Shown here: piece by piece, positions 3,773-24,000 of the stretch
Layout of the letters: every line of letters begins with the position of its first letter
How positions within the stretch are numbered: position 1 is the first letter of the stretch
Source: Acidimicrobiaceae bacterium
GTDB taxonomy: Bacteria; Actinomycetota; Acidimicrobiia; Acidimicrobiales; RAAP-2
DNA length: 24,000 nucleotides
Direction of reading: 5' to 3'
Assembly: GCA_003151235.1 (NCBI GenBank)
Contig: PLWZ01000027.1
Location: 39,257-63,256, forward strand
The notes under the pieces: generated by a model
Told to the model about the DNA's origin: nothing
Databases searched by the model: none
Seen by the model: only the letters and a program-made list of their open reading frames with translations
Program-made: the position numbers and the translations under genes

Positions 3773-5119
3773 TCAAAATGACGATAGATCGCGCCCAACA
3801 AACTCTAGGCAAGCACGCCATGCTGTCTTTACAGTGCCATCGGCCGGATCTCGAAACCAGACTTCCCCGAATTGGCGGTTTTGATTCCACTCCCACGAGA
3901 CCTCCTGTCCCGCTTGGTAGTCCGTTCGGGTTGTCGGAAAGATGCGCAGGGTCGACGTGCCATCAGGGCTAGCTGTTCGGAGAATCACTCCTCGCGCCTC
4001 GTCGATCTCCGATTGGCCGGCTTCGTCATTGAACAACGGAACGTCCATGAATTGAACGAAGTTGTGATCCCGAGGAGCCGACCGCAAAGCTCGCACTATC
4101 TCAAGTCCCGAGTCAACTGCGTCGCGGAGGACCGTAGGGTCAACGGCGCTTCCCTGCTGCGCAATGAGATTCTGAACTGTCGAGAACTGTCGAATCGCTT
4201 GAAGAGTCCCTGGCTCGAGGTTGGCGGCCTCCTCGATTGTTTGGATCATCTGATCGAGAGAACCGAGGACCGCATCGGCGTGGCCAGTAGCCGCCAGCAA
4301 ACGACGGAGCTCTTGCTCAATTTCGTCTGCAACTTGGTTTAGGGACGATCGTGGTAAGCCTGCCCCGGCAAGGTTGCTGATCAGGTCGAAGCTCATCGAT
4401 CGGGGGGCAAGCGCGAACTCTTCTACACGCTGGCCGATCGGACCGGTGGTGTCGATTGCTGTCTCTTGATTCTGCGACGGCTCGGTCGTTGGCCGCGACA
4501 GACCCTTTTTGATTGCCGCTACAGTTTGAGCCGTTTCACTCTTGAGTTGGTTCACTGCTTCGGCCGTTTCGGCCTTATCCAGGCGCTTGGGTAGTGAGAG
4601 CCGGCTCCAGAGGTACAGGAACACAAAGCCACACACGGCGTAGAAAAGGACCACGGCGAGCCCGAAGCCTGCGCTGGATGGGCCGCCGCCAAATCCATTA
4701 CGCAGGGCGTTGCCGAGCTCGCTGAGGGCTTTTGGAGCTCGGCCGAGCTGAACCAAACCGGCACCGACGAGGATTTTGGTCAGCCAATCCGAGACTTGGA
4801 CGAGGTTGTCGTTTCCCTGATAGCGCAGATTTGCCGACGTGACGCCAGAACTACCACTGGTGTCTTTCGTCATAGGCCGCGGTATTCCGAATAGAAGCCC
4901 CAGAAGTGCCCCCGCAAATCCAGAGGCACCAGCCGTGACTAAAGCTGTGCCCAGGACAGACCAGGCCTCGTGTCGCGGGAACTGCAGGATGTAGAAGACG
5001 CAAGCGACAATCCCGCATGCGGCGAGCAAGGGAATGACCAGCCACCAATCGAGCCCGCTAGGCCAGCCTTGCTTCGGCTTGTCAGCCATTAGCCGGAGTA
5101 TTGCAGGACCGGCGACCAA
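3773..5119 (-). CDS. Hypothetical integral membrane protein: four predicted N-terminal TM helices plus a soluble C-terminal region
   Basis: 448-aa ORF. Hydrophobic segments are WWLVIPLLAACGIVACVFYILQF, WSVLGTALVTAGASGFAGALLGLLFGI, ILVGAGLVQLG and GFGLAVVLFYAVCGFVFLYLW. The start is uncertain (TTG 5119 or ATG 5089, neither with a clear SD). I recognised no family. Confidence 0.6.
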   Translation of the reverse strand: MVAGPAILRLMADKPKQGWPSGLDWWLVIPLLAACGIVACVFYILQFPRHEAWSVLGTALVTAGASGFAGALLGLLFGIPRPMTKDTSGSSGVTSANLRYQGNDNLVQVSDWLTKILVGAGLVQLGRAPKALSELGNALRNGFGGGPSSAGFGLAVVLFYAVCGFVFLYLWSRLSLPKRLDKAETAEAVNQLKSETAQTVAAIKKGLSRPTTEPSQNQETAIDTTGPIGQRVEEFALAPRSMSFDLISNLAGAGLPRSSLNQVADEIEQELRRLLAATGHADAVLGSLDQMIQTIEEAANLEPGTLQAIRQFSTVQNLIAQQGSAVDPTVLRDAVDSGLEIVRALRSAPRDHNFVQFMDVPLFNDEAGQSEIDEARGVILRTASPDGTSTLRIFPTTRTDYQAGQEVSWEWNQNRQFGEVWFRDPADGTVKTAWRACLEFVGRDLSSF

Positions 5120-5277
5120 ATTACAACAGAGATCATAGGCGGCCGATGGTGATACCCCTTACTCACCAACTAGCTAATGTTCGCCCCGTTTACCGAGGAG
5201 TTCAATGCACGCCTACAACAGTGGATTTAGTTTGACTGTGGCCCGTGTCGCGACCTGGGGAGCCTAAGTCTTCGAGA

Positions 5278-5601
5278 TCAGGGTTTGCCTGCCTCGATCC
5301 ACGACTGAACCCGGGCATCGACGATGCGCCGGGTGTCCGGCAGCTGGGCCCATGCTCGGAAACGAGATTTCTCGTCCGGAGATAGCCTAGAGAATAGAGT
5401 GCTCCCCCGGCGGGCTGGAGAACTCTTACCGACGGTGCGAGCCTTTTCTACGTACGGCTTCAGAGCCGAACGAAACTGCTCAAGGTTGGACTCGCTTAGG
5501 TCGATCTCGTAGGACTTGCTATCGAGGGAAAAAATGACCGTGTGGTGAGCATCTCCACCATCGAGGTCGTCGATCAGTTTTACAACCACCGTCTGGGCCA
5601 T
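5278..5601 (-). CDS. lsr2: Lsr2-family nucleoid-associated protein (xenogeneic silencer)
   Basis: From ATG 5601..5599 the product starts MAQTVVVKLIDDLDGGDAHHTVIFSLDSKSYEIDLSESNLEQFRSALKPYVEKARTVG.... This parallels the mycobacterial Lsr2 N-terminal dimerisation domain (V.V.L.DD.DG...T..F.LDG..YEIDLS..N...). It is followed by a basic linker and a C-terminal FRAWA...RRI...V..W domain. The longer 158-aa track ORF is probably an upstream in-frame extension. Confidence 0.8.
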   Translation of the reverse strand: MAQTVVVKLIDDLDGGDAHHTVIFSLDSKSYEIDLSESNLEQFRSALKPYVEKARTVGKSSPARRGSTLFSRLSPDEKSRFRAWAQLPDTRRIVDARVQSWIEAGKP

Positions 5602-5614
5602 GGGCCAAGACTTT

Positions 5615-5688
5615 ACACAATGTGTGCGACCTCTCACAATTTGTACCAACTCTGACAATTTGTACCGACACCCACCGTGTGTACCGAC
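5615..5688. promoter_or_regulatory. Cluster of four related ACA(N)TGT-core palindromic half-sites directly upstream of lsr2
   Basis: acacaatgtgt (5615-5625), acaatttgtacc (5636-5647), an identical acaatttgtacc (5655-5666) and gtgtgtaccgac (~5677-5688). Spacing is ~19-21 bp in a locally AT-richer stretch starting 14 bp upstream of the lsr2 ATG. Confidence 0.35.
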
Positions 5689-5789
5689 TCGCCGGCGCTC
5701 CGATGCCAGCGTGGATTGACGTCGCCTGACCTGGGACAGGCGCCAGTCACACATGGCGCCGGGAACCGCAGGTAGAGGAGAACCCGTGT

Positions 5790-8306: not shown

Positions 8307-8648
8307 TCAGCTGTCGGTCGGTGGCTGCCAACCACCGGTCGACCGGTGCCAACCGGATCCGGACTTGGCCCGATGCTGCAAAGCGACGGCGCCAATGACT
8401 CCGAAGGCAATCAGCACGCCACCGACCACAATCAACCAGTCGCTGATGTCCAGCCAGGCGTTGTACAGGCCGCAATGCGCTAGCCCACTTGGCACAACGT
8501 ATTGGCCGACCTGACCGACCGGCGAGATACAAGCGGCATGCAAAGGGTCATAGTGGGCATGCACGGCTATGCCGACGACCAGGAGGACAAACCCTCCCAC
8601 CACGCTCAGGATCAGCCGGCCGCCTGAGCTCTTTCCCGTTGTGGCCAT
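8307..8648 (-). CDS. Hypothetical small membrane protein (2 TM)
   Basis: 113-aa ORF. A strong SD (GGGAGGAGAA) sits immediately upstream of ATG 8648. The TM segments are LILSVVGGFVLLVVGIAV and WLIVVGGVLIAFGVIGAVAL. Confidence 0.6.
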   Translation of the reverse strand: MATTGKSSGGRLILSVVGGFVLLVVGIAVHAHYDPLHAACISPVGQVGQYVVPSGLAHCGLYNAWLDISDWLIVVGGVLIAFGVIGAVALQHRAKSGSGWHRSTGGWQPPTDS

Positions 8649-11419: not shown

Positions 11420-12829
11420 GTGCGGATTTTGTCGTCGGTCATACCGACCGCTGAACAGTTACCAATCCTCAACGACAGCCGACCGGGCTTTCGCGTCATT
11501 CGTGGCGCTGCCGGGAGCGGTAAGACCACAACCGCTCTCTTGCGCCTCAAGCAGTTGTGCGCGACCCGGCTCACGCGACGAAATCGCCTCGGTGAGACCG
11601 AGCCTGTTCGAGTGTTGGTTCTCACGTACAACACAACGCTTCAGGGCTATATCGCTGAGCTCGCTCGGTCCCAAGTGGCCGGAGATGCCGGCCTCATCCT
11701 CAACGTGAGTACCTTTTCAAAATGGGCCAAGGATCTCATCGAGAACCTCGCCATCCTCGATCACGGCCAGATCGAAGGGATCCTCCGCCCGTTGCTCCGT
11801 CCCGTCATTCCTGGCTCCGCGGCGATCGAATATTTTTTGCAGGAAGTTGAGTACGTCTTGTCGATGTTTCTTCCGGAGGACCTGCCTAACTACCTGGGGA
11901 TGCGAAGAGAGGGCAGAGGAGGTTCTCCTCGCATCGATCGATCGCTCCGAGAACGCCTTCTAAATGAGGTCATCTACCCGTACGAGGACGTCAAGCTGGC
12001 CCGAGGAAAAATGGACTGGAATGATCTCGCGCTTGAGGCCATCGGCGCTCCTGGCCCGGCTTACGACATCGTGATCATCGATGAAGCCCAAGACTTTTCG
12101 GCCAATCAAGTGCGGGCTGTTATCTCACACCTGGCCGATGATGCTTCTGTCACCTTCGTGATCGACGCCGTGCAGCGGATCTATCCGCGGTTCTTTAGAT
12201 GGAACGAAGTGGGCGTCACGATTCGGCCAGAGCAGAGCTACAGGCTCACCTGCAACCACCGCAACACACGCCAGATTGCTGCGTTCGCATTGCCGCTCGT
12301 CGAGAATCTTCCACTCGAGGACGACGGCTCACTCCCCGACTTCACTACCTGCGAGGAGGAAGGCCCGCTGCCCGAGGTCGTCTCCGGGACCTATAGCCAG
12401 CAACTCGATTACATGCTGGATCGTCTGATCGATCGAGTCGACCTGAATAGCGAGTCGGTGGCGATTCTCCAGCCAAAAGGTGGTGGATGGTTTGCTTTCG
12501 CGCGAAAAGCTCTGCAACTTAGGGGAATCCCATACTGCGAGCTAACGCGGCAGAGCGACTGGCCGGCCGGTCCGGCCAACGTAGGAATCTCTACGATCCA
12601 TTCGGCCAAGGGCTTGGAGTTCGACCACGTCCTCTTGCCGGGAATGAATCGTGAGGTGACCCCCCATGGTCTCGAAGAAGGCGACGGTTCGCTGGAGGGT
12701 CTTCAGCGCCTGTTTGCCATGGGAGTCGGAAGGGCTCGGCGGTCCGTGATCGTCGGGTGCAAGCCGGGTGAAGAATCCACGCTCATCAGCCTTCTCGACC
12801 CAGCGACTTACACGATGGTCAAACTATGA
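11420..12829 (+). CDS. UvrD/Rep-like SF1 helicase-family ATPase (compact, 469 aa)
   Basis: Walker A IRGAAGSGKTTTAL (nt ~11500-11535), Walker B/motif II IVIIDEAQDF (~12067-12096), YRLTCNHRNTRQI (motif IV-like), TIHSAKGLEFDHVLL (motif V) and GVGRARRS (motif VI). GTG start at 11420. Confidence 0.85.
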   Translation: MRILSSVIPTAEQLPILNDSRPGFRVIRGAAGSGKTTTALLRLKQLCATRLTRRNRLGETEPVRVLVLTYNTTLQGYIAELARSQVAGDAGLILNVSTFSKWAKDLIENLAILDHGQIEGILRPLLRPVIPGSAAIEYFLQEVEYVLSMFLPEDLPNYLGMRREGRGGSPRIDRSLRERLLNEVIYPYEDVKLARGKMDWNDLALEAIGAPGPAYDIVIIDEAQDFSANQVRAVISHLADDASVTFVIDAVQRIYPRFFRWNEVGVTIRPEQSYRLTCNHRNTRQIAAFALPLVENLPLEDDGSLPDFTTCEEEGPLPEVVSGTYSQQLDYMLDRLIDRVDLNSESVAILQPKGGGWFAFARKALQLRGIPYCELTRQSDWPAGPANVGISTIHSAKGLEFDHVLLPGMNREVTPHGLEEGDGSLEGLQRLFAMGVGRARRSVIVGCKPGEESTLISLLDPATYTMVKL

Positions 12830-13515
12830 GCGACACGATCGTAGAGGCGGTGCCCCGCGCTCTAAGGGACATCGCCCGGTTGCCGCAGCAGGACGAGGTG
12901 GTCGTCGCTGCCCGACAGCGCGGCATAACTGAGGTACTCCACTTCACAACCACGAAGAACCTCGTTGGGATCATTGCTTCGGGCTACCTCAAATGCCGCA
13001 ACCTCGTGTCTGAGGATCACTACGTCGAGAACGTTTACGACCCGAACTGCGGCGATCGCTCTCGAGACGCCATTTGGACTGGTTACGTCAATATGTCGAT
13101 CAGTCGAATAAATGCCTGGATGTTCCAGTCATCAACGCGATGGCATCTTTCTGACGGTAATAGCTGGGTGGTGCTGGCATTCGACCCGGTAGTCCTGGGA
13201 CACCCAGGCGTTATCTTCGCCACTACGAACAATGCGTACCGAGGCATATGTCTTCGGGCAGAGGGGAAGGCAGGCTTCGATCGAATGTTCGGGGACAGAG
13301 TGCGGGGCTACAACCGTGAGCTTTCTCGGGGGTCGCTAGATCCGAAGTATCCCACAGATAGGTGCGCCGAGGTTCTCTACCCAGAGCAACTCAGCATCGA
13401 ATATCTTACGAAACTTTACGTTCAGATCGAGACCGACCAGGATCACATTCCGGGGATCCTCACCAGTCTCGACTGCCGAATACCCCTTGAGTATGTCCCG
13501 GAGGTTTTCGCGTGA
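12826..13515 (+). CDS. DarT-like (DUF4433-type) ADP-ribosyltransferase
   Basis: 229 aa. VLHFTTTKNLVGIIASGYLK (nt ~12934-12993) parallels the Thermus DarT N-terminus IYHITHIDNLKGILRMGKLL. GYVNMSIS parallels DYVPFYF. RCAEVLYPEQLSIEYLTKLYV (nt ~13360-13422) parallels the catalytic-Glu segment KQAEFLVYKAFPWALIEEIAV. Its ATG overlaps the helicase stop (ATGA, 12826-12829). The comparison is from my memory of the DarT sequence, not from a search. Confidence 0.65.
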   Translation: MSDTIVEAVPRALRDIARLPQQDEVVVAARQRGITEVLHFTTTKNLVGIIASGYLKCRNLVSEDHYVENVYDPNCGDRSRDAIWTGYVNMSISRINAWMFQSSTRWHLSDGNSWVVLAFDPVVLGHPGVIFATTNNAYRGICLRAEGKAGFDRMFGDRVRGYNRELSRGSLDPKYPTDRCAEVLYPEQLSIEYLTKLYVQIETDQDHIPGILTSLDCRIPLEYVPEVFA

Positions 13516-15203
13516 CGGAGGAGCAACCGCGATCGGGTGTGACGCCGCCAATGTTTTCGATGTCCAGAGGCAACGGAGATCGACTCACGCGCACCGTACG
13601 TTCGGCCCTTTGGGCGGCGTATGGAGACGCGCTTGGGTTCATCAGTGAGCTAACTGACAACGAGGGTCTATCCCGCCGGACCAAGGGTCAACCGCTAGTA
13701 AGGCCGATGGCGTGGACTCGGTACGTCGGCGGACGCCAGGGTGTCAAGGTACTTCTGCCATCAGGCTGCTATTCGGACGACACCCAACTCCGACTCTGCT
13801 GTTCTCGTGCGATCGGACCCAGGGGGTTCGATGTCGAAGCGTTCGCAAAGGTGGAACTGACAGTTTGGCCGTCATATGCACTCGGCGGTGGCATCGGAAC
13901 TAAAGCCGCCGCGGCAAATCTGGTCAAAGATCAAGTTGCGTGGTATTGCAATACGTTCAAAGGATGGACGGAGGCTGGGGGTAACGGCGCAGCCATGCGC
14001 GTTCAACCGCATGTTTGGGCTGCCGCTGATCTGGAGTCCTTCGCAAGCTTCACTCCAGACGTCCTCAGAGACGCGATTTGCACGCACGGCAGTCCCACCG
14101 GGATCCTCGGAGCCGTCTTACACGCCATGTGTACCGCTCACGCGATCAGCCGAGGGGAACTTCCTCGACCGCCGGATGTTCTGACAATGATTCAAGCCTG
14201 TGAAGACATTCCAGAGATGCTCATGCGAAATGATCATGAGATTGGTGAGATCTGGCTGGGCCTTTGGAATCGGGAGGCTGGCAGACAGTTCGCTGAGGCC
14301 TGGAGTTCGACAGTCAGCACTGCACGAGAGGCGGTCGGACTGGTCGCAAGCGAAGCTAGTAGTGAGGCGACCAGCTACATGCGGGTTTTGGACATGCTCA
14401 AGCTCTTCGATCCGGCCATCCGAGGGAGCGGATTGTTAACTGCAATCGCAGCCATCGCGCTTTTGTGGATCGAGCCCGATCTGGCGAAGGCCTTGCCTGT
14501 CGCTGCCCAAGCACTGGGTTCGGACACTGACACAATTGCGACAATGGCCGGTGCCGTTGGAGGAGCTGTCGCAACTGGCGATCCGGACGGCAGCATCGCT
14601 GACGAGCGCCTAATCCGAGACGAGGCGACGAGACTGTTTAACTTGGCTGAAGGCGCGGAGCGCCCGGGGCACCGGTATCCGGATCTACTTCACTGGGCAC
14701 CTCCGCGCACACAAGCCGACGCATTGGTCGAGGGCCTGTCCGGCCTTGAGGTTGTCGGTCTGGGACCCGTACGCACTGGAAGTGAGCCAATCTTGGATGC
14801 GCACGGGAACTTCATGTGGCAATGGGTAGAACTCGACTTTGGTCAGAACCTGCTTGTTAAGCGGCGCCGAGTTCTGAACCCGGTCGACGGCCAACACCCG
14901 AAGCGCAGCGGTCCTCAGGTAATGAGAGCTACTGGCGCCAACACAAAACACCAGTCGAGATCGCCTAGACGGCCACGCGGCGAGGCAACATCAGCCGACT
15001 CGCAGGAACCATCTTCAAGCCAGGACCCGAAGCCGCTTCCAATCGATCGAGGCGTCGAACTTGAAACAGCTATTGGCTGGCTCGGTGAGAATGAACTGAG
15101 TGACAAGGCTATCGGGTATGCAATCCGACGAGTTGCTCGAGACGGATCTCCTGAACAGCTTCTGATGCTGATCGGCATCCTCCGCGAACGGCTGAGGCAC
15201 TAA
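13512..15203 (+). CDS. ADP-ribosylglycohydrolase (ARH/DraG family) with a ~190-aa C-terminal extension
   Basis: 563 aa. ARH signatures are ALWAAYGDALGF, CYSDDTQL (nt ~13767-13790), GGNGAAMRV (~13978-14004) and GSDTDTIATMAGAVGGA (~14518-14568). GTG 13512 overlaps the DarT-like stop (GTGA) and has GGAGG 7 nt upstream. The C-terminus has a basic, Ser/Pro-rich linker (KHQSRSPRRPRGEATSADSQEPSSSQDPKP) followed by a short helical module. Confidence 0.85.
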   Translation: MTEEQPRSGVTPPMFSMSRGNGDRLTRTVRSALWAAYGDALGFISELTDNEGLSRRTKGQPLVRPMAWTRYVGGRQGVKVLLPSGCYSDDTQLRLCCSRAIGPRGFDVEAFAKVELTVWPSYALGGGIGTKAAAANLVKDQVAWYCNTFKGWTEAGGNGAAMRVQPHVWAAADLESFASFTPDVLRDAICTHGSPTGILGAVLHAMCTAHAISRGELPRPPDVLTMIQACEDIPEMLMRNDHEIGEIWLGLWNREAGRQFAEAWSSTVSTAREAVGLVASEASSEATSYMRVLDMLKLFDPAIRGSGLLTAIAAIALLWIEPDLAKALPVAAQALGSDTDTIATMAGAVGGAVATGDPDGSIADERLIRDEATRLFNLAEGAERPGHRYPDLLHWAPPRTQADALVEGLSGLEVVGLGPVRTGSEPILDAHGNFMWQWVELDFGQNLLVKRRRVLNPVDGQHPKRSGPQVMRATGANTKHQSRSPRRPRGEATSADSQEPSSSQDPKPLPIDRGVELETAIGWLGENELSDKAIGYAIRRVARDGSPEQLLMLIGILRERLRH

Positions 15204-15218
15204 GAGCAAGCCTATCCA

Positions 15219-15785
15219 ATGTCAGTAGCCGATCAGATTCTGAACTTTGTAAAGACCCTCGTGTGGCCAGCGGTGGTCGTGACGGCCGTGCTTACATTTC
15301 GCCCGCAACTGGCCAGGTTGATTAGCAGAGTGACCGAGGTGAGCGCAGCAGGCGCCTCCGTGAAGTTCAGTGACGAAGTCGACGAACTGGCCGACACCGC
15401 GGATTCTGTGCTTCGCGAGGTGCGAGGTAACTTCGCGCCCGAAGAGACTCCCCCACTGCCGGTTTCGACGCTCCAGGTTGAGAAGGAGCCCACCGCAGCA
15501 TTTCTCGACGCTTACCGAGAGTTGGAGACAGCTGCCCGTGAAGTGGCAGTTGCCTCGGGCGCCACGTCACCCTTGTTGATCCCGGTCCTAAAGGGCCTGG
15601 CCGACAAGGACCTTCTGCCCGACGAGGCAGTGCATTTGGGAGAAGAGCTTCGTAGCATTCGAAATCGTGTCGCTCATGCGCTTCAGCACCTGACCCCGGA
15701 GGATGCAACAGGCCTAGTCGCAGCGGCGAATTCGTTGGCAAATGCTTGCCGTGCGATTACTGAAGGGATCGAGGACCCTGACTAG
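15219..15785 (+). CDS. Hypothetical protein: N-terminal hydrophobic helix plus a C-terminal Rx4H (HEPN/DUF4145-like) helical domain
   Basis: 188 aa. The hydrophobic segment is TLVWPAVVVTAVLTF. The motif ELRSIRNRVAHAL contains R-N-R-V-A-H (nt 15660-15677). It starts 16 nt after the ARH stop on the same strand, with no clear SD. Confidence 0.5.
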   Translation: MSVADQILNFVKTLVWPAVVVTAVLTFRPQLARLISRVTEVSAAGASVKFSDEVDELADTADSVLREVRGNFAPEETPPLPVSTLQVEKEPTAAFLDAYRELETAAREVAVASGATSPLLIPVLKGLADKDLLPDEAVHLGEELRSIRNRVAHALQHLTPEDATGLVAAANSLANACRAITEGIEDPD

Positions 15786-18541: not shown

Positions 18542-19375
18542 TTACCCGGCGGCCGGTGCGTTGGCCGCCACTACCTTGCGGTACTCCTTCACCACGTCCA
18601 CGAGGCCGTGCTCGTCAAGCCAACGACAGACATTCTCGATGTGCTCGCGTTCCAGGTAGGTGACCATCTGGCGCGACGTGACGAATCCTTCGCGGTGCGC
18701 CAGTTGAAGAAAGTCTCTGAATACCCAGAAGGTCCACGTTCGACGATCGGATAGAATCTCTTGTCCCTTCGGGTCGTCCTCCGGTGGGATCGGAACACCG
18801 TGGACGAGTTTGCCTCTCCATTCGTAGGCATCGCGGATCTCTTTCGGGTGAAAGAAAGGCTTCTCGATGGCAGCGTGGACGGCCACGCTTCGGACCGTCA
18901 CGATCCCGTCCTTTAGCCCGCGTGATTCCGGTACGAGCAAAGCCTCCATCGCGCTGAACAGGGCAGGCAGTGCGATCCGCCAGTTCTCACTCATCGCCCC
19001 GATATCGAGCCACTCCAAGCACGTGTCGACGCGCGACCGAATCTCACGGGTCGTTGACAGGTAACGCCGTGACCACTCAGCGACCGTCTCCCGCCATTCG
19101 ACAAAGCCGGGACCTGCGAACTCCATAGCAAGTGGCTCGCGGTCCCTCCACCGCCACCCAGACACTGAGCCGTCTGCGAATGCGTACCGGCCATCCGGCC
19201 CAAACTGGACTTGTATCTCGTAGATCTTCGCTCCAAACCCGTGCATCGCCGGTTGGCGCAATAGCGCCAACGCATGTCTTGCCTTGATAATCGCACGGTC
19301 GGCTATATGTCCGTTTGTTCCCCCAGTTGCTTCGGTGACGCAAAGCAACGACGGCGGTTCTTCCCACCGTCCCAT
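18542..19375 (-). CDS. Hypothetical protein with a C-terminal Rx4H (HEPN-like) motif
   Basis: The track ORF is 356 aa, but its first ~79 codons overlap the divergent HTH gene, so ATG 19375 (MGRWEEPPSLL...) is more plausible, giving 277 aa. The motif YEWRGKLVHG has R-G-K-L-V-H at nt 18817..18800, preceded by helical ALFSAMEALL and RSVAVHAAIE segments. Confidence 0.5.
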   Translation of the reverse strand: MGRWEEPPSLLCVTEATGGTNGHIADRAIIKARHALALLRQPAMHGFGAKIYEIQVQFGPDGRYAFADGSVSGWRWRDREPLAMEFAGPGFVEWRETVAEWSRRYLSTTREIRSRVDTCLEWLDIGAMSENWRIALPALFSAMEALLVPESRGLKDGIVTVRSVAVHAAIEKPFFHPKEIRDAYEWRGKLVHGVPIPPEDDPKGQEILSDRRTWTFWVFRDFLQLAHREGFVTSRQMVTYLEREHIENVCRWLDEHGLVDVVKEYRKVVAANAPAAG

Positions 19376-19402
19376 ATCTGCGATTATTTCAGCCGGGAGG
19401 TC

Positions 19403-19894
19403 ATGGGACGTTACTCGAACCTCTGTGACCAGGGAGAACGTCTTCGGGCACTGCTCGAAATGGTGCCCGAAGGCCCTTCGACGGCAATTCCGCGAACCAT
19501 CAAGCAAATCCAACGACGACTTCGTGGGGCCGAAATCGACCAGCTGGTGGCCAGCTACCGAGCAGGCGCCACGGTCTACGAATTGAGTGCCCAGTTCGGG
19601 ATGCACCGTCACACCGTGTCGGAGGTTCTAGAGCGACGCGGGGTGTCTCGCCGATACCAGAGGCTCTCCCTGGAGCAGGTCGACTTGGCATGCACCCTCT
19701 ACGAGAGTGGGCACTCCCTGATCAAGGTGGGTGAGCAACTAGGTCGGAAGGCAGAGACCGTACGACAGGCGCTGATGAAGGCCGGAGTTGAGATCAAACC
19801 CCGGAATGGGTGGCACAGCGAGCGAGGCGCTGACGGTAACCATCATCACCGGGATAACCCAGTCAATTTGTATATGCGACCGGAGCAATTGTGA
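19403..19894 (+). CDS. DNA-binding protein with two tandem resolvase/HTH_7-like helix-turn-helix repeats
   Basis: The repeats are EIDQLVASYRAGATVYELSAQFGMHRHTVSEVLERRGV and LEQVDLACTLYESGHSLIKVGEQLGRKAETVRQALMKAGV. The start is uncertain: ATG 19403 has GGGAGG only 2 nt upstream, and ATG 19460 is an alternative. The 3' end overlaps the convergent gene by 32 nt. Confidence 0.6.
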   Translation: MGRYSNLCDQGERLRALLEMVPEGPSTAIPRTIKQIQRRLRGAEIDQLVASYRAGATVYELSAQFGMHRHTVSEVLERRGVSRRYQRLSLEQVDLACTLYESGHSLIKVGEQLGRKAETVRQALMKAGVEIKPRNGWHSERGADGNHHHRDNPVNLYMRPEQL

Positions 19895-21500
19895 GTTCGA
19901 CTTGCTGTCTCCTACATTCATCGACGAGGCGCAGGAGCCGCATACGGCTGAACGAGAACAGGGACTCCGCGTCGATTTTCCTCCGGTTACCCATAACAAG
20001 AACCGCCTGACGCGGTATGTCGGGAATCCATGCCGGGTCACCACCTTGAGCTTCAACGACTTTGATCAACCCGGCGCGTGCCGAAGCATCCTCCCGAAGA
20101 GCTAGTGCCGAGACTCCGGCCTGAGCGAAGAGATGGCTTGCCCCAGTGCTTCTTCCCACGGCCTTCACGTGCACGAACACCCCTTCGGGTGTCAGCACAT
20201 CACAACTCTCAAATCCCCGTGGGTTCGTTTCGCACCGAACGAGTCGGCGGTCAAGATTTACCCCGCCAAGAGCATCAGCGAGAGACCGATTGAATTCAGG
20301 TTCACCCACACCCGTAGGCCACAGCGGCAAGCCATGGATCGGCGGCTCAGCGGCGAAGATACGAGCGAGACGCTCAGAGAGGCGGTGGTTGAGCCCGTCA
20401 TCAACCATGTACCACCGACCGTTATGCATACAGAAGCGGTGCCCAGCGGACGTCGTCTCAAAGGTCACCCACTGCCGGGCTGGAAGCAAGCTACTGGCAG
20501 CTTCATTGTCGTCCGAAAAAGCCTGGACCTTCATCCGATCGAAGCGCCGCAGCCGCTCGCCGTCTGGGAGTGAACGGAGCGGGTCAAGGAGCGCTCCCAA
20601 AGTCATTCCATTCGGATCGTCGTCGCCGCCGAGGATTCCAGACACTCTGAAGTGGGACAAAGGTACGGCTTCGTCGGCGAGCTCGGTGGGCCAAGCCAAA
20701 CCCAGCGTTGGCGCGTCAGAATCACCAAGCGCTGCATCGAGAGCCTGTTCCAGCTCGGGCACATGGGAATCGGAGGACTTCAGCGCTCGGAGTTGCTCGA
20801 TGATCGCCAATTGCGGCACTGGATCGCGTTCGAGTAGCGCCTCGATGGCATCCAGGTCCGCCAAAAGACGCATCCCGTCACGGGCTAAGGGAAGGCTTAT
20901 CGCGTCTGCTCCTCGGATCTCGACTGGATCTCCCCCATCTCCCGCAAGTACTCCGTCCAAATAGGCAGGGCCAACGAGTCGACTGATGAGATCGCCGAGC
21001 TCGCTTGCGCCGAATCCACCGATATCGTCTCCTCCGGGTATAGATGTCCGGGCGACGTAGGCACGCAAGTCGAGCCTGGAATGTGTGATGGACCTGAGGT
21101 TGTCTGGATCAGCACAACGCGCAGCAAGGCGACGACCAAGGCTGGGCACCATTCGGGCGGCTTCAATCAGGTGAAACCCCATACCGAAGCAAATCGCCCA
21201 CACGCAATCGGAGTCGGGATCCCGGGTCGGCAAAAGAAGAACCCCTGCCGCGGTCGTGTTGCCCAACCCAGCGGCGATGGAGTCGTCATTGGTCCAGGTT
21301 GCAACTACGTACGTCCACTTCGCTTGCTGCGATGCCACGGAACCACCCACGAAATAGCCATCCCTGTTTCCCACACGGACCGGAGTGCTCTCGAAGTCAT
21401 CTCGCTCCAGATACTTCGTGCGAAGAACCGTCCCCGGATCGAGAGGACCTTCAACTTGGTAAACGGAAACTCGGGTGTGTGGATTTGGCTGACGCGGCAT
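19863..21500 (-). CDS. TIGR04141/DUF6119-like 'sporadically distributed' protein with a C-terminal PD-(D/E)xK-type motif
   Basis: 545 aa. ATG 21500 has the SD GAGAAGGGGGG upstream. The C-terminal ...FESCDVLTPEGVFVHVKAVGRSTGASHLFAQAGVSALAL... (D ~20199-20201, VHVK 20163-20174) has a D...(x)K nuclease-fold layout followed by SHLF.Q..VS. I recall this layout from the TIGR04141 family, but that is memory-based and unverified. Confidence 0.55.
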   Translation of the reverse strand: MPRQPNPHTRVSVYQVEGPLDPGTVLRTKYLERDDFESTPVRVGNRDGYFVGGSVASQQAKWTYVVATWTNDDSIAAGLGNTTAAGVLLLPTRDPDSDCVWAICFGMGFHLIEAARMVPSLGRRLAARCADPDNLRSITHSRLDLRAYVARTSIPGGDDIGGFGASELGDLISRLVGPAYLDGVLAGDGGDPVEIRGADAISLPLARDGMRLLADLDAIEALLERDPVPQLAIIEQLRALKSSDSHVPELEQALDAALGDSDAPTLGLAWPTELADEAVPLSHFRVSGILGGDDDPNGMTLGALLDPLRSLPDGERLRRFDRMKVQAFSDDNEAASSLLPARQWVTFETTSAGHRFCMHNGRWYMVDDGLNHRLSERLARIFAAEPPIHGLPLWPTGVGEPEFNRSLADALGGVNLDRRLVRCETNPRGFESCDVLTPEGVFVHVKAVGRSTGASHLFAQAGVSALALREDASARAGLIKVVEAQGGDPAWIPDIPRQAVLVMGNRRKIDAESLFSFSRMRLLRLVDECRRQQVELTIAPVAYTN

Positions 21501-21672
21501 AGGGCCCCCCTTCTCGCCGATACGTGCGGCGGCCAGGTTCAGCGAATTTGGTCCCCCGGCTTCGGCACTGCATCATCTCGGCAATTGGCATGGCTTCCGG
21601 AGGCACGATTGCAAAACCTCGATATGGCCTCGGACCTTATTCTTGCTTGTTGCAGTGCCCTCGGGCCGAACT

Positions 21673-22053
21673 TCACTCCGAAAAGAGGATGAAAAACAAC
21701 AGAACGGCTCCGACAAGAGTCAAACCGGCAGCGACGCCTCGCTCGTTCTTCTGCTTCGCCTGTGCGGCCAAGGTGACTGCGTCAACAAGCAACTTGAACT
21801 CCGCACTCGCAGGCCAAGGCAGGATCCAACCCACGACCGTCTGGATCAGCTCGCCATCCGGACTCTTGAGCCAGCCCGCAAGTTTGATCTCCCCAAACTC
21901 CGCTTCGTCCAAGAGGCTGTCACCAACCGACCCAACGTTTCGAAGACCCATCGTCCAACCCTGGGCCTCGTAAGCCCAGTCGGGATGCTCTCGTACCCAG
22001 CGCACCAAGAACGCGTAGAGCCTCTGGGCAATCGGATCGTTCTGGTAGTTCAC
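21673..22053 (-). CDS. Hypothetical protein with a C-terminal TM anchor
   Basis: GTG 22053 has AGGAGG 7 nt upstream. The alternative GTG 22071 overlaps the upstream stop as GTGA. The C-terminus AAGLTLVGAVLLFFILF is hydrophobic. Confidence 0.55.
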   Translation of the reverse strand: MNYQNDPIAQRLYAFLVRWVREHPDWAYEAQGWTMGLRNVGSVGDSLLDEAEFGEIKLAGWLKSPDGELIQTVVGWILPWPASAEFKLLVDAVTLAAQAKQKNERGVAAGLTLVGAVLLFFILFSE

Positions 22054-22067
22054 GCGAGTACCTCCTG

Positions 22068-22517
22068 TCACTGGCTAGCGGCGTAGGCGAAGATGATGAG
22101 TGCAAGCGTGACGCCGATTCCGGCCATGAACGGCGCAAACTCAGTTCGGTTGACGGTTCCGCCGCTGTCCTGATCTCCGGCCATCAGACCAGACACCCCC
22201 TGGTTGCACTGCGGACAGCGTCCAGCGATCAAGAAGTCGTGACCGGTTAGAGCTTGACCACATTCACAGGTACCAAGGATCTGACCCAGTCGGCCATCCA
22301 GCGCGACAGCGGCATCGTGTACCCGGGTCAGTTCCAGCTGTAGCTCCTGGGTCCGTTGCTCCAGGACCCTGATCGATGACTCGTTGCCGGCGGCTTCTAG
22401 CCCGCGGGACAGCAGGTCAGAGACGGCCGACGCCAACGACATGCCGTTCTCCTTGGCGTACTGATCCGTCGCCGCCTTCAGCTCGGGACTCACACGGGCA
22501 TAGATGGTGTCGGACAT
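22068..22517 (-). CDS. Ribbon-helix-helix (Arc/CopG-like) protein fused to a zinc ribbon and a C-terminal TM helix
   Basis: From ATG 22517, MSDTIYARVSPELKAATDQYAKENGMSLASAVSDLLSRGLE shows the RHH strand-helix-helix pattern. It is followed by a coiled segment, CECG...(13 residues)...CPQC (four-Cys ribbon), and then FAPFMAGIGVTLALIIFAYA. Confidence 0.6.
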   Translation of the reverse strand: MSDTIYARVSPELKAATDQYAKENGMSLASAVSDLLSRGLEAAGNESSIRVLEQRTQELQLELTRVHDAAVALDGRLGQILGTCECGQALTGHDFLIAGRCPQCNQGVSGLMAGDQDSGGTVNRTEFAPFMAGIGVTLALIIFAYAASQ

Positions 22518-22537
22518 ACAAGCAAGCGTAGCCGAGG

Positions 22538-22564
22538 TTGCAAGCGATTGCAATCGCTAGTGCA
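22538..22564. promoter_or_regulatory. Palindromic operator candidate in a divergent promoter region
   Basis: A perfect 16-bp palindrome agcgattg|caatcgct (22543-22558) is flanked by ttgca / tgcaa, which extend the symmetry with a 2-nt bulge. TGCAA recurs three times (~22539, ~22549, ~22561). It lies between the RHH gene start (22517, minus) and the MerR-helicase start (22616, plus). Confidence 0.45.
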
Positions 22565-22598
22565 ATGAGTTACAGGCTACGATGGGAGGGTTGACCAA

Positions 22599-22615: not shown

Positions 22616-24000
22616 ATGAGTCCAGCAGAGTTAGATGACTTCCTACAGGTGGGCGACGCTGCCGAATATCTCGGAGTTTCACCCCAGACGCTGCGGCGAT
22701 GGGACCGGGAGGGCCGTCTGGCGGCGGTCCGGCGACCTGGCAGCAACTACCGCTTCTATCGCCGAGCGGACCTCGAACCATTCCGTCTGGAGTATCGACG
22801 AGCAGCCGGTCCCGACGAGCCGGGGCTGCTGTTCCAGACGGCACTTGTCGACGTCGAAGCCAACAACCTGCTTCGGGAGCCCCAACGCCAAGCCCATCAA
22901 GCCGTGCGTGAACACTTCGCCAGCGGGAGCCAGCCCGCCATCATCCAGATCCCTGTCGGTTGCGGCAAGACCGGGATCATCGCCACGCTCCCGTTCGGCA
23001 TCGCCTCTGGCCGTGTTCTGGTCATTGCACCCAACCTCACGATCCGCAAAGGAATATCCGACGCCCTCGACATCGCCAGCCGGGAGTGTTTCTGGACCAA
23101 GACCCGGGTGCTGTCTGACTTCACCCAGGGCCCCTACGCCGCTGTGCTCGACGGCATCGACGCGAACATCCACGACTGCCTTGAGAGTCATTTTGTCGTG
23201 ACCAACATTCAGCAGCTGGCCAGCTCGGCTGACCGCTGGTTGCCGCAATTCCCACCCAATTTCTTCGACATGATCCTCGTCGACGAGGGCCACCACGCCG
23301 CCGCCGAGAGCTGGCAGAAGGTCTTCCGGCGCTTCCCGAACGCCAAGGTCGTGAGTCTGACGGCGACGCCATTTCGCGCTGACGAACGTCCGCTTCAAGG
23401 TGAAGTCATCTACAAGTACCCGTTCGCACGGGCCATGGTAAACGGCTTTATCAAGCGGATTCACTCCCGTAACGTGGCGCCATCGGAGGTGTATTTCACC
23501 TACGACGGGGACACCCGCCGACACGCCCTCGACGAGGTTCTGGCGCTTCGCGAGGAGCAGTGGTTCCGCCGGAGCGTGGCCCTGTCGCCAGAATGTAACC
23601 GGCATATTGCCGAAGCGAGCATCCAGCGCTGCGACTCATTACGGGCGGCCACAGGGATCCAACACCAGATCATCGCTGCCGCCTGCTCAGTAGACCATGC
23701 CCGACAGGTTCGGGCCATCTACGAAGAATGCGGCTACCGCGCAGCTGAGATCCACAGTGGCATGGATGAGGACGAGAAACAGGTAGTTCTCGACCGGCTG
23801 CAGATCGGCCAGCTTGACTGCATCGTTCAGGTCCAGATGCTCGGTGAGGGTTTTGACCACCCTCGCCTAAGCGTCGCCGCCGTGTTCCGCCCATTCCGCT
23901 CACTAGCCCCATTCATCCAGTTTGTCGGTCGAGTGATGCGCGTCGTCATTCAGGAGAACCCTGATCATCCAGATAATCAGGGTTTCGTGATATCGCACAT
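22616..24000 (+). CDS. MerR-type HTH fused to an SF2 (DEAD/DEAH, ResIII-type) helicase; C-terminus beyond the right edge
   Basis: Missing from the ORF track because it has no stop in the window. Manual translation from ATG 22616 gives MSPAELDDFLQVGDAAEYLGVSPQTLRRWDREGRLAAVRRPGSNYRFYRRADLEPF (MerR/excisionase-type HTH). It continues with motif I IQIPVGCGKTG, motif II ILVDEGHHAAA (~23272-23304), motif III VVSLTATPFR and motif VI-region QVQMLGEGFDHPRL. The track ORFs 22635..23201(+) and 22679..23605(-) are shadow frames. Confidence 0.85.
   Translation, partial: MSPAELDDFLQVGDAAEYLGVSPQTLRRWDREGRLAAVRRPGSNYRFYRRADLEPFRLEYRRAAGPDEPGLLFQTALVDVEANNLLREPQRQAHQAVREHFASGSQPAIIQIPVGCGKTGIIATLPFGIASGRVLVIAPNLTIRKGISDALDIASRECFWTKTRVLSDFTQGPYAAVLDGIDANIHDCLESHFVVTNIQQLASSADRWLPQFPPNFFDMILVDEGHHAAAESWQKVFRRFPNAKVVSLTATPFRADERPLQGEVIYKYPFARAMVNGFIKRIHSRNVAPSEVYFTYDGDTRRHALDEVLALREEQWFRRSVALSPECNRHIAEASIQRCDSLRAATGIQHQIIAAACSVDHARQVRAIYEECGYRAAEIHSGMDEDEKQVVLDRLQIGQLDCIVQVQMLGEGFDHPRLSVAAVFRPFRSLAPFIQFVGRVMRVVIQENPDHPDNQGFVISH

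Follow-up and report, generated by a model that had tools for sequence, protein, structure and literature searches.

A 24,000-nucleotide stretch of genomic DNA from an Acidimicrobiaceae bacterium (Actinomycetota; contig PLWZ01000027.1 of assembly GCA_003151235.1, positions 39,257 to 63,256 of the forward strand), hereafter the window, carries three consecutive genes on its minus strand. They encode a 149-aa protein with a ribbon-helix-helix (RHH) N-terminus, a 126-aa partner with a C-terminal transmembrane (TM) segment and a 545-aa member of the DUF6119/TIGR04141 family. A preliminary description, made from the sequence alone, had treated the three as one operon and suggested a role in abortive infection. 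Comparison with related loci leads to a different picture: the region very probably consists of two mobile cassettes, independent of each other, which lie side by side in the defence island of this actinobacterial lineage and nowhere else. The first, termed here cassette A (~22566-21673), would be a self-contained bicistronic unit of ~0.9 kb comprising the RHH gene and its partner. The second, cassette B (~21507-19863), would be a DUF6119/TIGR04141 gene that stands alone, has a Shine-Dalgarno (SD) sequence of its own and encodes a cytoplasmic two-domain protein.

Two cassettes and the junction between them

The three open reading frames (ORFs) were confirmed at the coordinates originally given (19863-22553 overall); the RHH gene occupies 22068-22517, the partner 21673-22053 and the DUF6119 gene 19863-21500, all on the minus strand. 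For the comparison, reference genomes supplied 50 DUF6119 loci and metagenomes 22 loci anchored on the RHH gene; these were supplemented by exact-protein look-ups and plasmid copies. Co-occurrence was assessed by tblastn and by profile hidden Markov models (HMMs) run against all six-frame ORFs. By these means neither the RHH gene nor the partner gene was found in any of the 62 DUF6119 loci outside the window lineage, and DUF6119 was found in none of the 37 loci carrying the RHH gene, the partner gene or both. DUF6119 relatives displaying 75, 73, 65, 64 and 57% identity to the window protein are preceded by genes unrelated to either small gene. The genes in this position next to close relatives include a fusion of an XRE-type helix-turn-helix (HTH) domain and Peptidase_M78, unknown proteins of 347-359 aa, DndB and RES/Xre. 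The window DUF6119 protein itself is no different from the rest of its family, and its adjacency to the RHH/TM pair is confined to this lineage.

The DNA comparison places boundaries at the two edges of the intergenic gap. In blastn alignments, homology to RHH loci extends from 22566 to 21673, that is from the promoter to the stop codon of the partner gene, and homology to DUF6119 loci extends from ~21507 to 19873. The intervening gap had been described as 172 bp long, and it is indeed a spacer of this length (21501-21672, minus strand). It is specific to the lineage, shares no DNA homology with RHH- or DUF6119-anchored relatives and is, judged by these breakpoints, the junction between two cassettes.

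The reading proposed at the outset is that the three genes constitute one abortive-infection-type system, in which infection would be sensed by the membrane-bound RHH protein together with its partner, and these would control or activate DUF6119 as a nuclease-like effector, if only in the lineage of the window. The defence-island setting is in keeping with such a system, and the three-gene arrangement is preserved identically on five contigs from different samples. However, these contigs encode DUF6119 proteins that are 100% identical; they represent one lineage and lend no independent support.

Several further observations weigh against a clean separation of the cassettes and on the side of a single system. 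The three genes are co-directional in the window lineage and the 172-bp gap harbours neither a terminator-like site nor a stable hairpin; its predicted RNA fold is ordinary (z = 0.43), and on this ground a terminator or riboswitch-like structure was rejected. The gap also contains an exact copy of the core of the cassette A operator described below, TTGCAATCG, at positions 21606-21614 of the minus strand, which places it 106 bp ahead of the DUF6119 start codon. Elsewhere in the 24 kb, this 9-mer recurs exactly only within the operator palindrome. In addition, the sampled loci were limited to the reach of pattern-based scans. Local co-transcription or co-regulation could operate in this lineage, with read-through from the RHH promoter into DUF6119.

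Yet the box in the gap is single and unphased, and no TAnnnT hexamer is found 17-19 nt downstream of it; it could be a remnant, a chance occurrence or a co-opted operator. Against a three-gene system stand, above all, the lack of co-occurrence in the 62 and 37 loci outside the lineage, the closest DUF6119 relatives devoid of the small genes and the homology breakpoints on both sides of the gap. The small genes are not syntenic with the 545-aa gene in the other loci compared, an outcome that the preliminary description had itself named as refuting, and the idea of an abortive-infection module composed of a membrane sensor or regulator and a nuclease effector fails on this point. Weighed together, these data make the three-gene system most improbable, and the concept of a conserved operon was abandoned in favour of two independent cassettes.

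The RHH protein and its predicted membrane partner

The start of the RHH gene at ATG 22517 agrees with the length of its homologues (n=32), all of which are ~150 aa. An alternative start at TTG 22553, yielding a protein of 161 aa, was rejected since this codon falls inside the operator palindrome and the homologues have ~150 aa. The 149-aa product opens with the RHH domain (~aa 4-42, nt 22392-22508), which exhibits a conserved beta-alpha-alpha RHH-like motif (TIYARV..ELK..TD.YA...GMSLASAVSDLLSRGLE). A central, heptad-like helical stretch forms a predicted coiled segment (~aa 46-80) and is followed by a four-Cys ribbon (C84/C86/C101/C104, nt 22206-22268). The cysteines are arranged in two pairs (CxC...CxxC), the pattern of a zinc ribbon, and are invariant across 29 close homologues. 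In distant homologues the first three are invariant and the fourth is sometimes replaced by a GH motif. Hydropathy analysis discloses a single hydrophobic segment at residues 127-145 of 149 (nt 22083-22139), and because of this the protein is predicted to be tail-anchored, with its entire soluble part lying in the cytoplasm.

The window protein itself yields no Pfam match at E<=0.05. When 30 diverse members of the family were scanned, RHH_1 was matched by two (best 1.7e-6) and RHH_5 by six; the ribbon-like family DUF7837 was matched by 19 of the 30, and others match the HypA, LapB or DZR ribbon families. An hhalign comparison of the family profile with Escherichia coli DinJ aligned it to DinJ residues 3-44, which span the RHH motif (P = 8e-4, probability 24%), and small PHROG families match the N-terminus at ~1e-4. 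These family-level results support the RHH assignment. The unusual architecture noted from the outset, in which an RHH domain, a coiled segment, a four-Cys ribbon and a C-terminal TM helix are combined, is upheld by the conserved motif, the invariant cysteines, hydropathy and the family-level HMM matches. Clustered at 50% identity, the family amounts to 223 clusters in a set of 1.84 billion representatives. No member was found on sequenced phages or plasmids or in a scan of IMG/VR viral contigs, and literature searches for membrane-anchored RHH proteins gave nothing functional.

Tethering of a cytoplasmic DNA-binding domain by a single TM helix is reminiscent of ToxR, CadC and TcpP, as is the presence of a small membrane partner encoded alongside, exemplified by ToxR-ToxS. 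ToxR, CadC and TcpP possess a winged-helix domain and a periplasmic sensor located after the TM helix. The protein described here differs from them in its RHH fold and appears to be devoid of an external sensor, because only ~4 residues follow the TM segment.

The partner gene begins at GTG 22053, which is located 7 nt past an AGGAGG ribosome-binding site (22061-22066, minus strand) and 14 nt past the stop codon of the RHH gene. The tight coupling of the two genes and the C-terminal TM helix of the second product had been recognized previously, and both observations hold. Of the two start codons that had been put forward, the one in a GTGA overlap (132 aa) was discarded: the homologues begin with MNYQNDP and the RHH and partner genes of other loci are separated by 9-12 nt, both of which favour the GTG after AGGAGG. 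The only hydrophobic segment of the 126-aa protein spans aa 106-124 (nt 21682-21738). It is preceded by a soluble domain of ~100 aa that contains the conserved motifs AEF, WL..DGE.I, GW.LPWP and LAA.AKQ. No match to the partner was found in the Pfam, NCBIfam, PADLOC or PHROG libraries. Outside the window lineage it directly follows the RHH gene in 29 loci, and a homologous partner is retained even beside an RHH relative of 38% identity.

Upstream of the RHH gene lies an operator-like array (22538-22566, minus strand) of three TTGCA(A) boxes, at 22565-22561, 22553-22548 and 22543-22538, spaced by 12 and 10 bp. A perfect palindrome, GCGATTGCAATCGC (22544-22557), is centred on the middle box, which occupies the position expected of a -35 element. 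A -10-like hexamer, TACGCT (22525-22530, minus strand), ends 7 nt before ATG 22517. A scan for consensus sigma-70 promoters found nothing, and the conserved promoter emerged from locus comparison alone. Across 19 non-redundant upstream regions, the frequency of TTGCA/TGCAA is 3.2 per 80 bp versus a background of 0.13, a ~24-fold enrichment. One TTGCA box is fixed at -36/-35 across these regions, and 16 of the 19 loci have a TAnnnT hexamer exactly at -13/-12 relative to the start codon. The resulting layout has TTGCAA 17-18 nt upstream of TAnnnT, with extra TTGCA boxes phased by 10-12 bp on either side, and the RHH relative at 38% identity displays the same arrangement of boxes and hexamer.

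No SD sequence is discernible upstream of ATG 22517. The location of the -10-like hexamer, 12-13 nt before the start codon, implies that transcription would begin at or near the ATG and that the RHH mRNA would be leaderless. Such a promoter (TTGCAA, 17-18 nt, TAnnnT, 7 nt, ATG) would drive expression of the RHH gene and then of the partner, 14 nt further on. Autorepression is the usual mode of action of RHH repressors and RHH antitoxins. RHH dimers are somewhat more likely than not to bind the phased TTGCA boxes over the -35 element and to repress their own operon.

The pair of genes has been found in at least eight different neighbourhoods, and no third gene conserved with it was detected in the loci compared. 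In one lineage (L087-L090, 3718-8816) the pair is located between genes for an AAA_15/AAA_21 ATPase and a DUF429 protein and a type I restriction-modification (R-M) operon, with a 310-aa gene of unknown nature only 35 bp downstream. Other neighbourhoods include a region with PycTM and PhD/YefM and a site near an integrase.

Type II toxin-antitoxin (TA) modules with RHH antitoxins include RelBE, DinJ-YafQ and ParDE, and cassette A shares a number of traits with them. The RHH gene comes first, the proteins are small (149 and 126 aa) and the genes are 9-14 nt apart, which is the typical order, size and coupling of such bicistronic modules. Repeats resembling an operator decorate the promoter, the cassette is mobile and sharp-edged within variable islands, the RHH motif can be aligned to its counterpart in the antitoxin DinJ, and at one locus (L056) the partner gene is frameshifted beside an intact RHH gene. 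These features would suit a strict TA-like pair, in which the 126-aa protein is a membrane-damaging toxin and the RHH protein an autoregulating antitoxin that neutralizes it by membrane contact, DUF6119 being unrelated.

The differences are nevertheless considerable. Unlike the components of type II modules, both cassette A proteins are predicted to be tail-anchored; the RHH protein adds a coiled coil and a zinc ribbon, and no known toxin family is matched by the partner. Nor is the association of the two genes obligate, a circumstance that also detracts from the notion of a dedicated two-component module. On five contigs an intact, conserved partner gene is maintained where the RHH gene has been reduced to its final ~36 codons, a situation that a toxin dependent on the RHH protein should not tolerate. 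Furthermore, some related RHH genes precede an unrelated short hydrophobic peptide ORF instead of the partner. Because the partner persists next to an RHH remnant and some RHH genes are coupled to short peptide ORFs, a dedicated repressor tethered to the membrane and accompanied by a membrane-anchored cargo or effector is favoured over a strict toxin/antitoxin pair, which we consider unlikely.

The loci with an RHH remnant (L072, 1434-1955; L104/L105, ~4890-5399) harbour the most divergent partner homologue, which is intact, with 132 aa and 49% identity; a divergent 68-aa gene and a Peptidase_M48 gene adjoin it. RHH-ribbon-TM genes with 50-57% identity in three other loci (L066, ~5080-5200; L069, ~8445-8600; L070, 7198-7563) are followed by ORFs for hydrophobic or glycine-zipper-like peptides, for example MQKLIIGAIIGAVVGEIAKDALKAIGLSKHAATVAGGIIGALA.

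In the arrangement of repressor and cargo, the C-terminal tail anchors would fix both proteins to the cytoplasmic side of the membrane, where they might act together, the RHH protein being dedicated to regulation and its partner serving as cargo or effector in a conflict-type module for exclusion or defence. Such a defence or exclusion role for cassette A is a tentative proposal, less likely than not. It has to be set against the observation that none of the three proteins matches a PADLOC-DB v2 model at E<=0.1.

The DUF6119 protein and its candidate active site

The gene for the 545-aa protein is preceded by an SD-like sequence, GAAGGGGGG. Membership of the TIGR04141/DUF6119 family, proposed from the outset, is full-length and well above the curated cut-offs: PF19614 (DUF6119) scores 296.1 bits against a cut-off of 27 over residues 34-539 (E = 6.6e-88) and TIGR04141 scores 248.8 bits against a cut-off of 35 over residues 13-539 (E = 9e-74). 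The family is annotated as a 'sporadically distributed protein', and the window protein shares its invariant residues with Streptomyces, Paracoccus and Rhizobium plasmid copies. Hydropathy analysis indicated no TM segment. The AlphaFold2 model of the full-length protein (pLDDT 86.4, pTM 0.80; pLDDT 86.2 for a separate model of the C-terminal half) consists of a beta-rich N-terminal half, a linker at ~aa 272-300 and a C-terminal alpha/beta domain.

The C-terminal domain contains an active-site-like signature (20121-20303, minus strand), which encompasses the motif CDVL-x9-VHVK...SHLF.Q highlighted in the preliminary description. The motif is present and highly conserved in DUF6119 members. Nine residues of the signature (E400, N404, D417, E431, D434, K446, H456, L457 and Q460) are invariant across members with as little as 21% identity, including alphaproteobacterial plasmid copies. 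The signature also includes S455 and H444, the latter being nearly invariant and replaced by Cys in one member. In AlphaFold2 models these residues are distributed over elements in the order alpha-beta-beta-beta-alpha-beta, with D434-x9-H444-x-K446 on a beta-hairpin and the invariant E400 on the helix before it.

The modelled hairpin and the Glu-bearing helix that precedes it fit a variant of the PD-(D/E)xK core. The likeness to PD-(D/E)xK nucleases of the D-x9-ExK kind (lambda exonuclease/RecB-type) extends to the order of the elements, the spacing D434-x9-(H444)-x-K446, and the conserved Glu and Gln carried by the helices before and after it, respectively. In contrast to these enzymes, the middle acid of the triad is His or Cys in DUF6119, a position for which E431 and E400 could act as stand-ins. 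On balance, the odds are slightly in favour of the signature being a metal-dependent phosphodiesterase site of nuclease-like character.

The structural and profile searches did not corroborate the restriction-endonuclease fold that had been suggested for the C-terminus, and this weighs against a nuclease. Foldseek searches of the Protein Data Bank (PDB) with the full-length and the C-terminal models returned nothing at E<=1e-3 despite pLDDT values of ~86, and comparison of both family profiles with PDB chain sequences produced only noise. When 31 members were compared with Pfam at E<=1, the only match common to all was DUF6119 itself, and hhalign assigned a probability of 0.2% to an alignment of the C-terminal domain with the HsdR N-terminal nuclease domain taken from the study loci. 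Foldseek with the full-length model against the BFVD collection of viral structures also gave nothing at E<=1e-3, the best match being an RdgC-like 'recombination associated protein' (E 0.011).

These results, along with the His or Cys in the middle of the triad, are those expected if DUF6119 is not a PD-(D/E)xK nuclease and its signature marks another enzyme class or a nucleic-acid or nucleotide-binding site, in a fold without a solved relative. Countering this alternative are the element order, the hairpin and the invariant E400, all of which fit a PD-(D/E)xK core, and the recurrence of restriction-endonuclease-fold proteins below threshold. The latter comprise CdiA-CT (4g6u_A, E 0.06, prob 0.77), which we take to be a nuclease of this fold, BglII (E 0.51) and XPF (E 0.94), all at noise level. 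The PD-(D/E)xK superfamily is generally hard to detect. The non-nuclease alternative is accorded a little less than an even chance, and the nuclease-like site is retained as the working interpretation.

Two other resemblances were set aside. Foldseek matches to sliding clamps were disregarded as their probabilities are 0.01-0.04, and a supposed likeness to KwaB (DUF4868) and RdgC was dropped, as RdgC goes unmentioned in the Kiwa paper and no PADLOC match to KwaB was obtained.

The sole recurrent neighbour of DUF6119 in the loci compared is the XRE-HTH/Peptidase_M78 fusion. Among ~48 non-redundant loci, ~9-10 have it as the next gene upstream in the same orientation, with gaps down to 44-56 bp. 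The fusion is of the ImmA/IrrE type and has a length of ~325-400 aa (L013, L026, L027, L028, L031, L033, L041 and L086); at one further locus (L083) the XRE-HTH/Peptidase_M78 gene is divergent from DUF6119. The hosts of this arrangement are Blastococcus, Mycolicibacter and Acidimicrobiia genomes. Other neighbours include R-M components, Abi_2, a SLFN-type helicase and a dCTP-deaminase-like protein. The family gave one distant match in IMG/VR and eight distant plasmid matches.

Because of this assortment of neighbours, the evidence points to DUF6119 as a solitary gene of defence islands and the mobilome, sometimes under the control of an ImmR/ImmA-type switch. In other Actinobacteria it is found either alone or directly downstream of an XRE-HTH/Peptidase_M78 regulator. 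Modules of the Xre-COG2856 type, in which an XRE-HTH protein is combined with an ImmA/IrrE-like Peptidase_M78, were reportedly predicted by Makarova and colleagues in 2009 to be TA-like or mobile stress-response modules. The loci with the upstream fusion resemble these modules, whereas the window DUF6119 gene has no XRE/M78 gene and is preceded instead by the RHH/TM cassette. The literature searched describes no function for DUF6119/TIGR04141, and the one relevant mention is 'associated to mobilomes'.

Island setting and significance

The window represents an actinobacterial defence island, as had been surmised: it contains genes for Lsr2, a GajB-like UvrD helicase, DarT, an ADP-ribosylglycohydrolase, a DUF4145/HEPN protein and a MerR-HTH/SF2 helicase. 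The Lsr2 homologue (5278-5754, minus strand) is situated at the island edge; its dimerization domain spans residues 52-109 of the 158-aa longest ORF, and the protein apparently bears an N-terminal extension of ~50 aa. Three plus-strand genes at 11420-15203, translationally coupled through 4-bp overlaps, encode the GajB-like UvrD helicase (469 aa), DarT (229 aa; Pfam 7e-24, PADLOC DarT 7e-9) and the ADP-ribosylglycohydrolase (ARH/DraG-type, 563 aa), for which PADLOC provided no match. The partner of DarT appears here to be an ARH-type hydrolase, not the macrodomain protein DarG. Right behind these genes, a 188-aa DUF4145 protein with a weak Swt1-like HEPN match (15219-15785, plus strand) is encoded, and it is retained on sister contigs.

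The cassettes are flanked by two plus-strand genes. A gene starting at 22616 and running past the window end at 24000 is divergent from the RHH gene, 100 bp apart, and encodes a MerR-type HTH fused to a superfamily 2 (SF2) helicase (ResIII/Helicase_C, DEGHH), which has 694 aa in locus L074. The helicase gives weak PADLOC matches to type IV restriction, PbeA and DpdF helicases, and on full contigs its gene is followed by a 75-aa gene and a 330-aa gene. On the other side, an HTH_38/HTH_23 gene (19274-19894) is convergent with the DUF6119 gene, whose 3' end it overlaps by 32 bp. Gene callers predict a shorter product of ~163 aa on sister contigs, and the gene is incompatible with the long form of a 356-aa minus-strand ORF at 18542-19612. 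Loci L056 and L063 carry homologues of the HTH gene (35-37% identity) on the downstream side of their RHH+TM pairs, and L059 shows a short, weak match; the window looks as though DUF6119 had entered between pair and HTH gene.

The analysis illustrates that adjacency and co-orientation within a defence island do not make a system, as the proposed operon splits cleanly into two cassettes. Cassette A represents a compact, uncharacterized family with an unusual design, combining a putative tail-anchored DNA-binding repressor with a tail-anchored partner, and its conserved promoter and operator make regulation directly testable. For DUF6119/TIGR04141, the analysis contributes a structural model of high confidence and a small set of invariant residues that are candidates for catalysis, together with a recurrent XRE/ImmA-type regulator partner and a consistent placement in defence islands.

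A more elaborate scenario envisages the RHH protein and its partner as a membrane-coupled conflict module, in which repressor and effector would reside at the inner face of the membrane and an envelope perturbation, such as phage entry, would bring about derepression and/or activation of the partner. DUF6119 would separately be a new defence effector encoded by a single gene, with a fold for which no related structure has been solved. This scenario is a distinctly long shot. If it is true, the ~220-cluster RHH family, which has no Pfam, PADLOC or literature description, would amount to a new defence or exclusion system. Should either cassette prove to protect against phages, it would be a new entry in the catalogue of defence systems for Actinobacteria.

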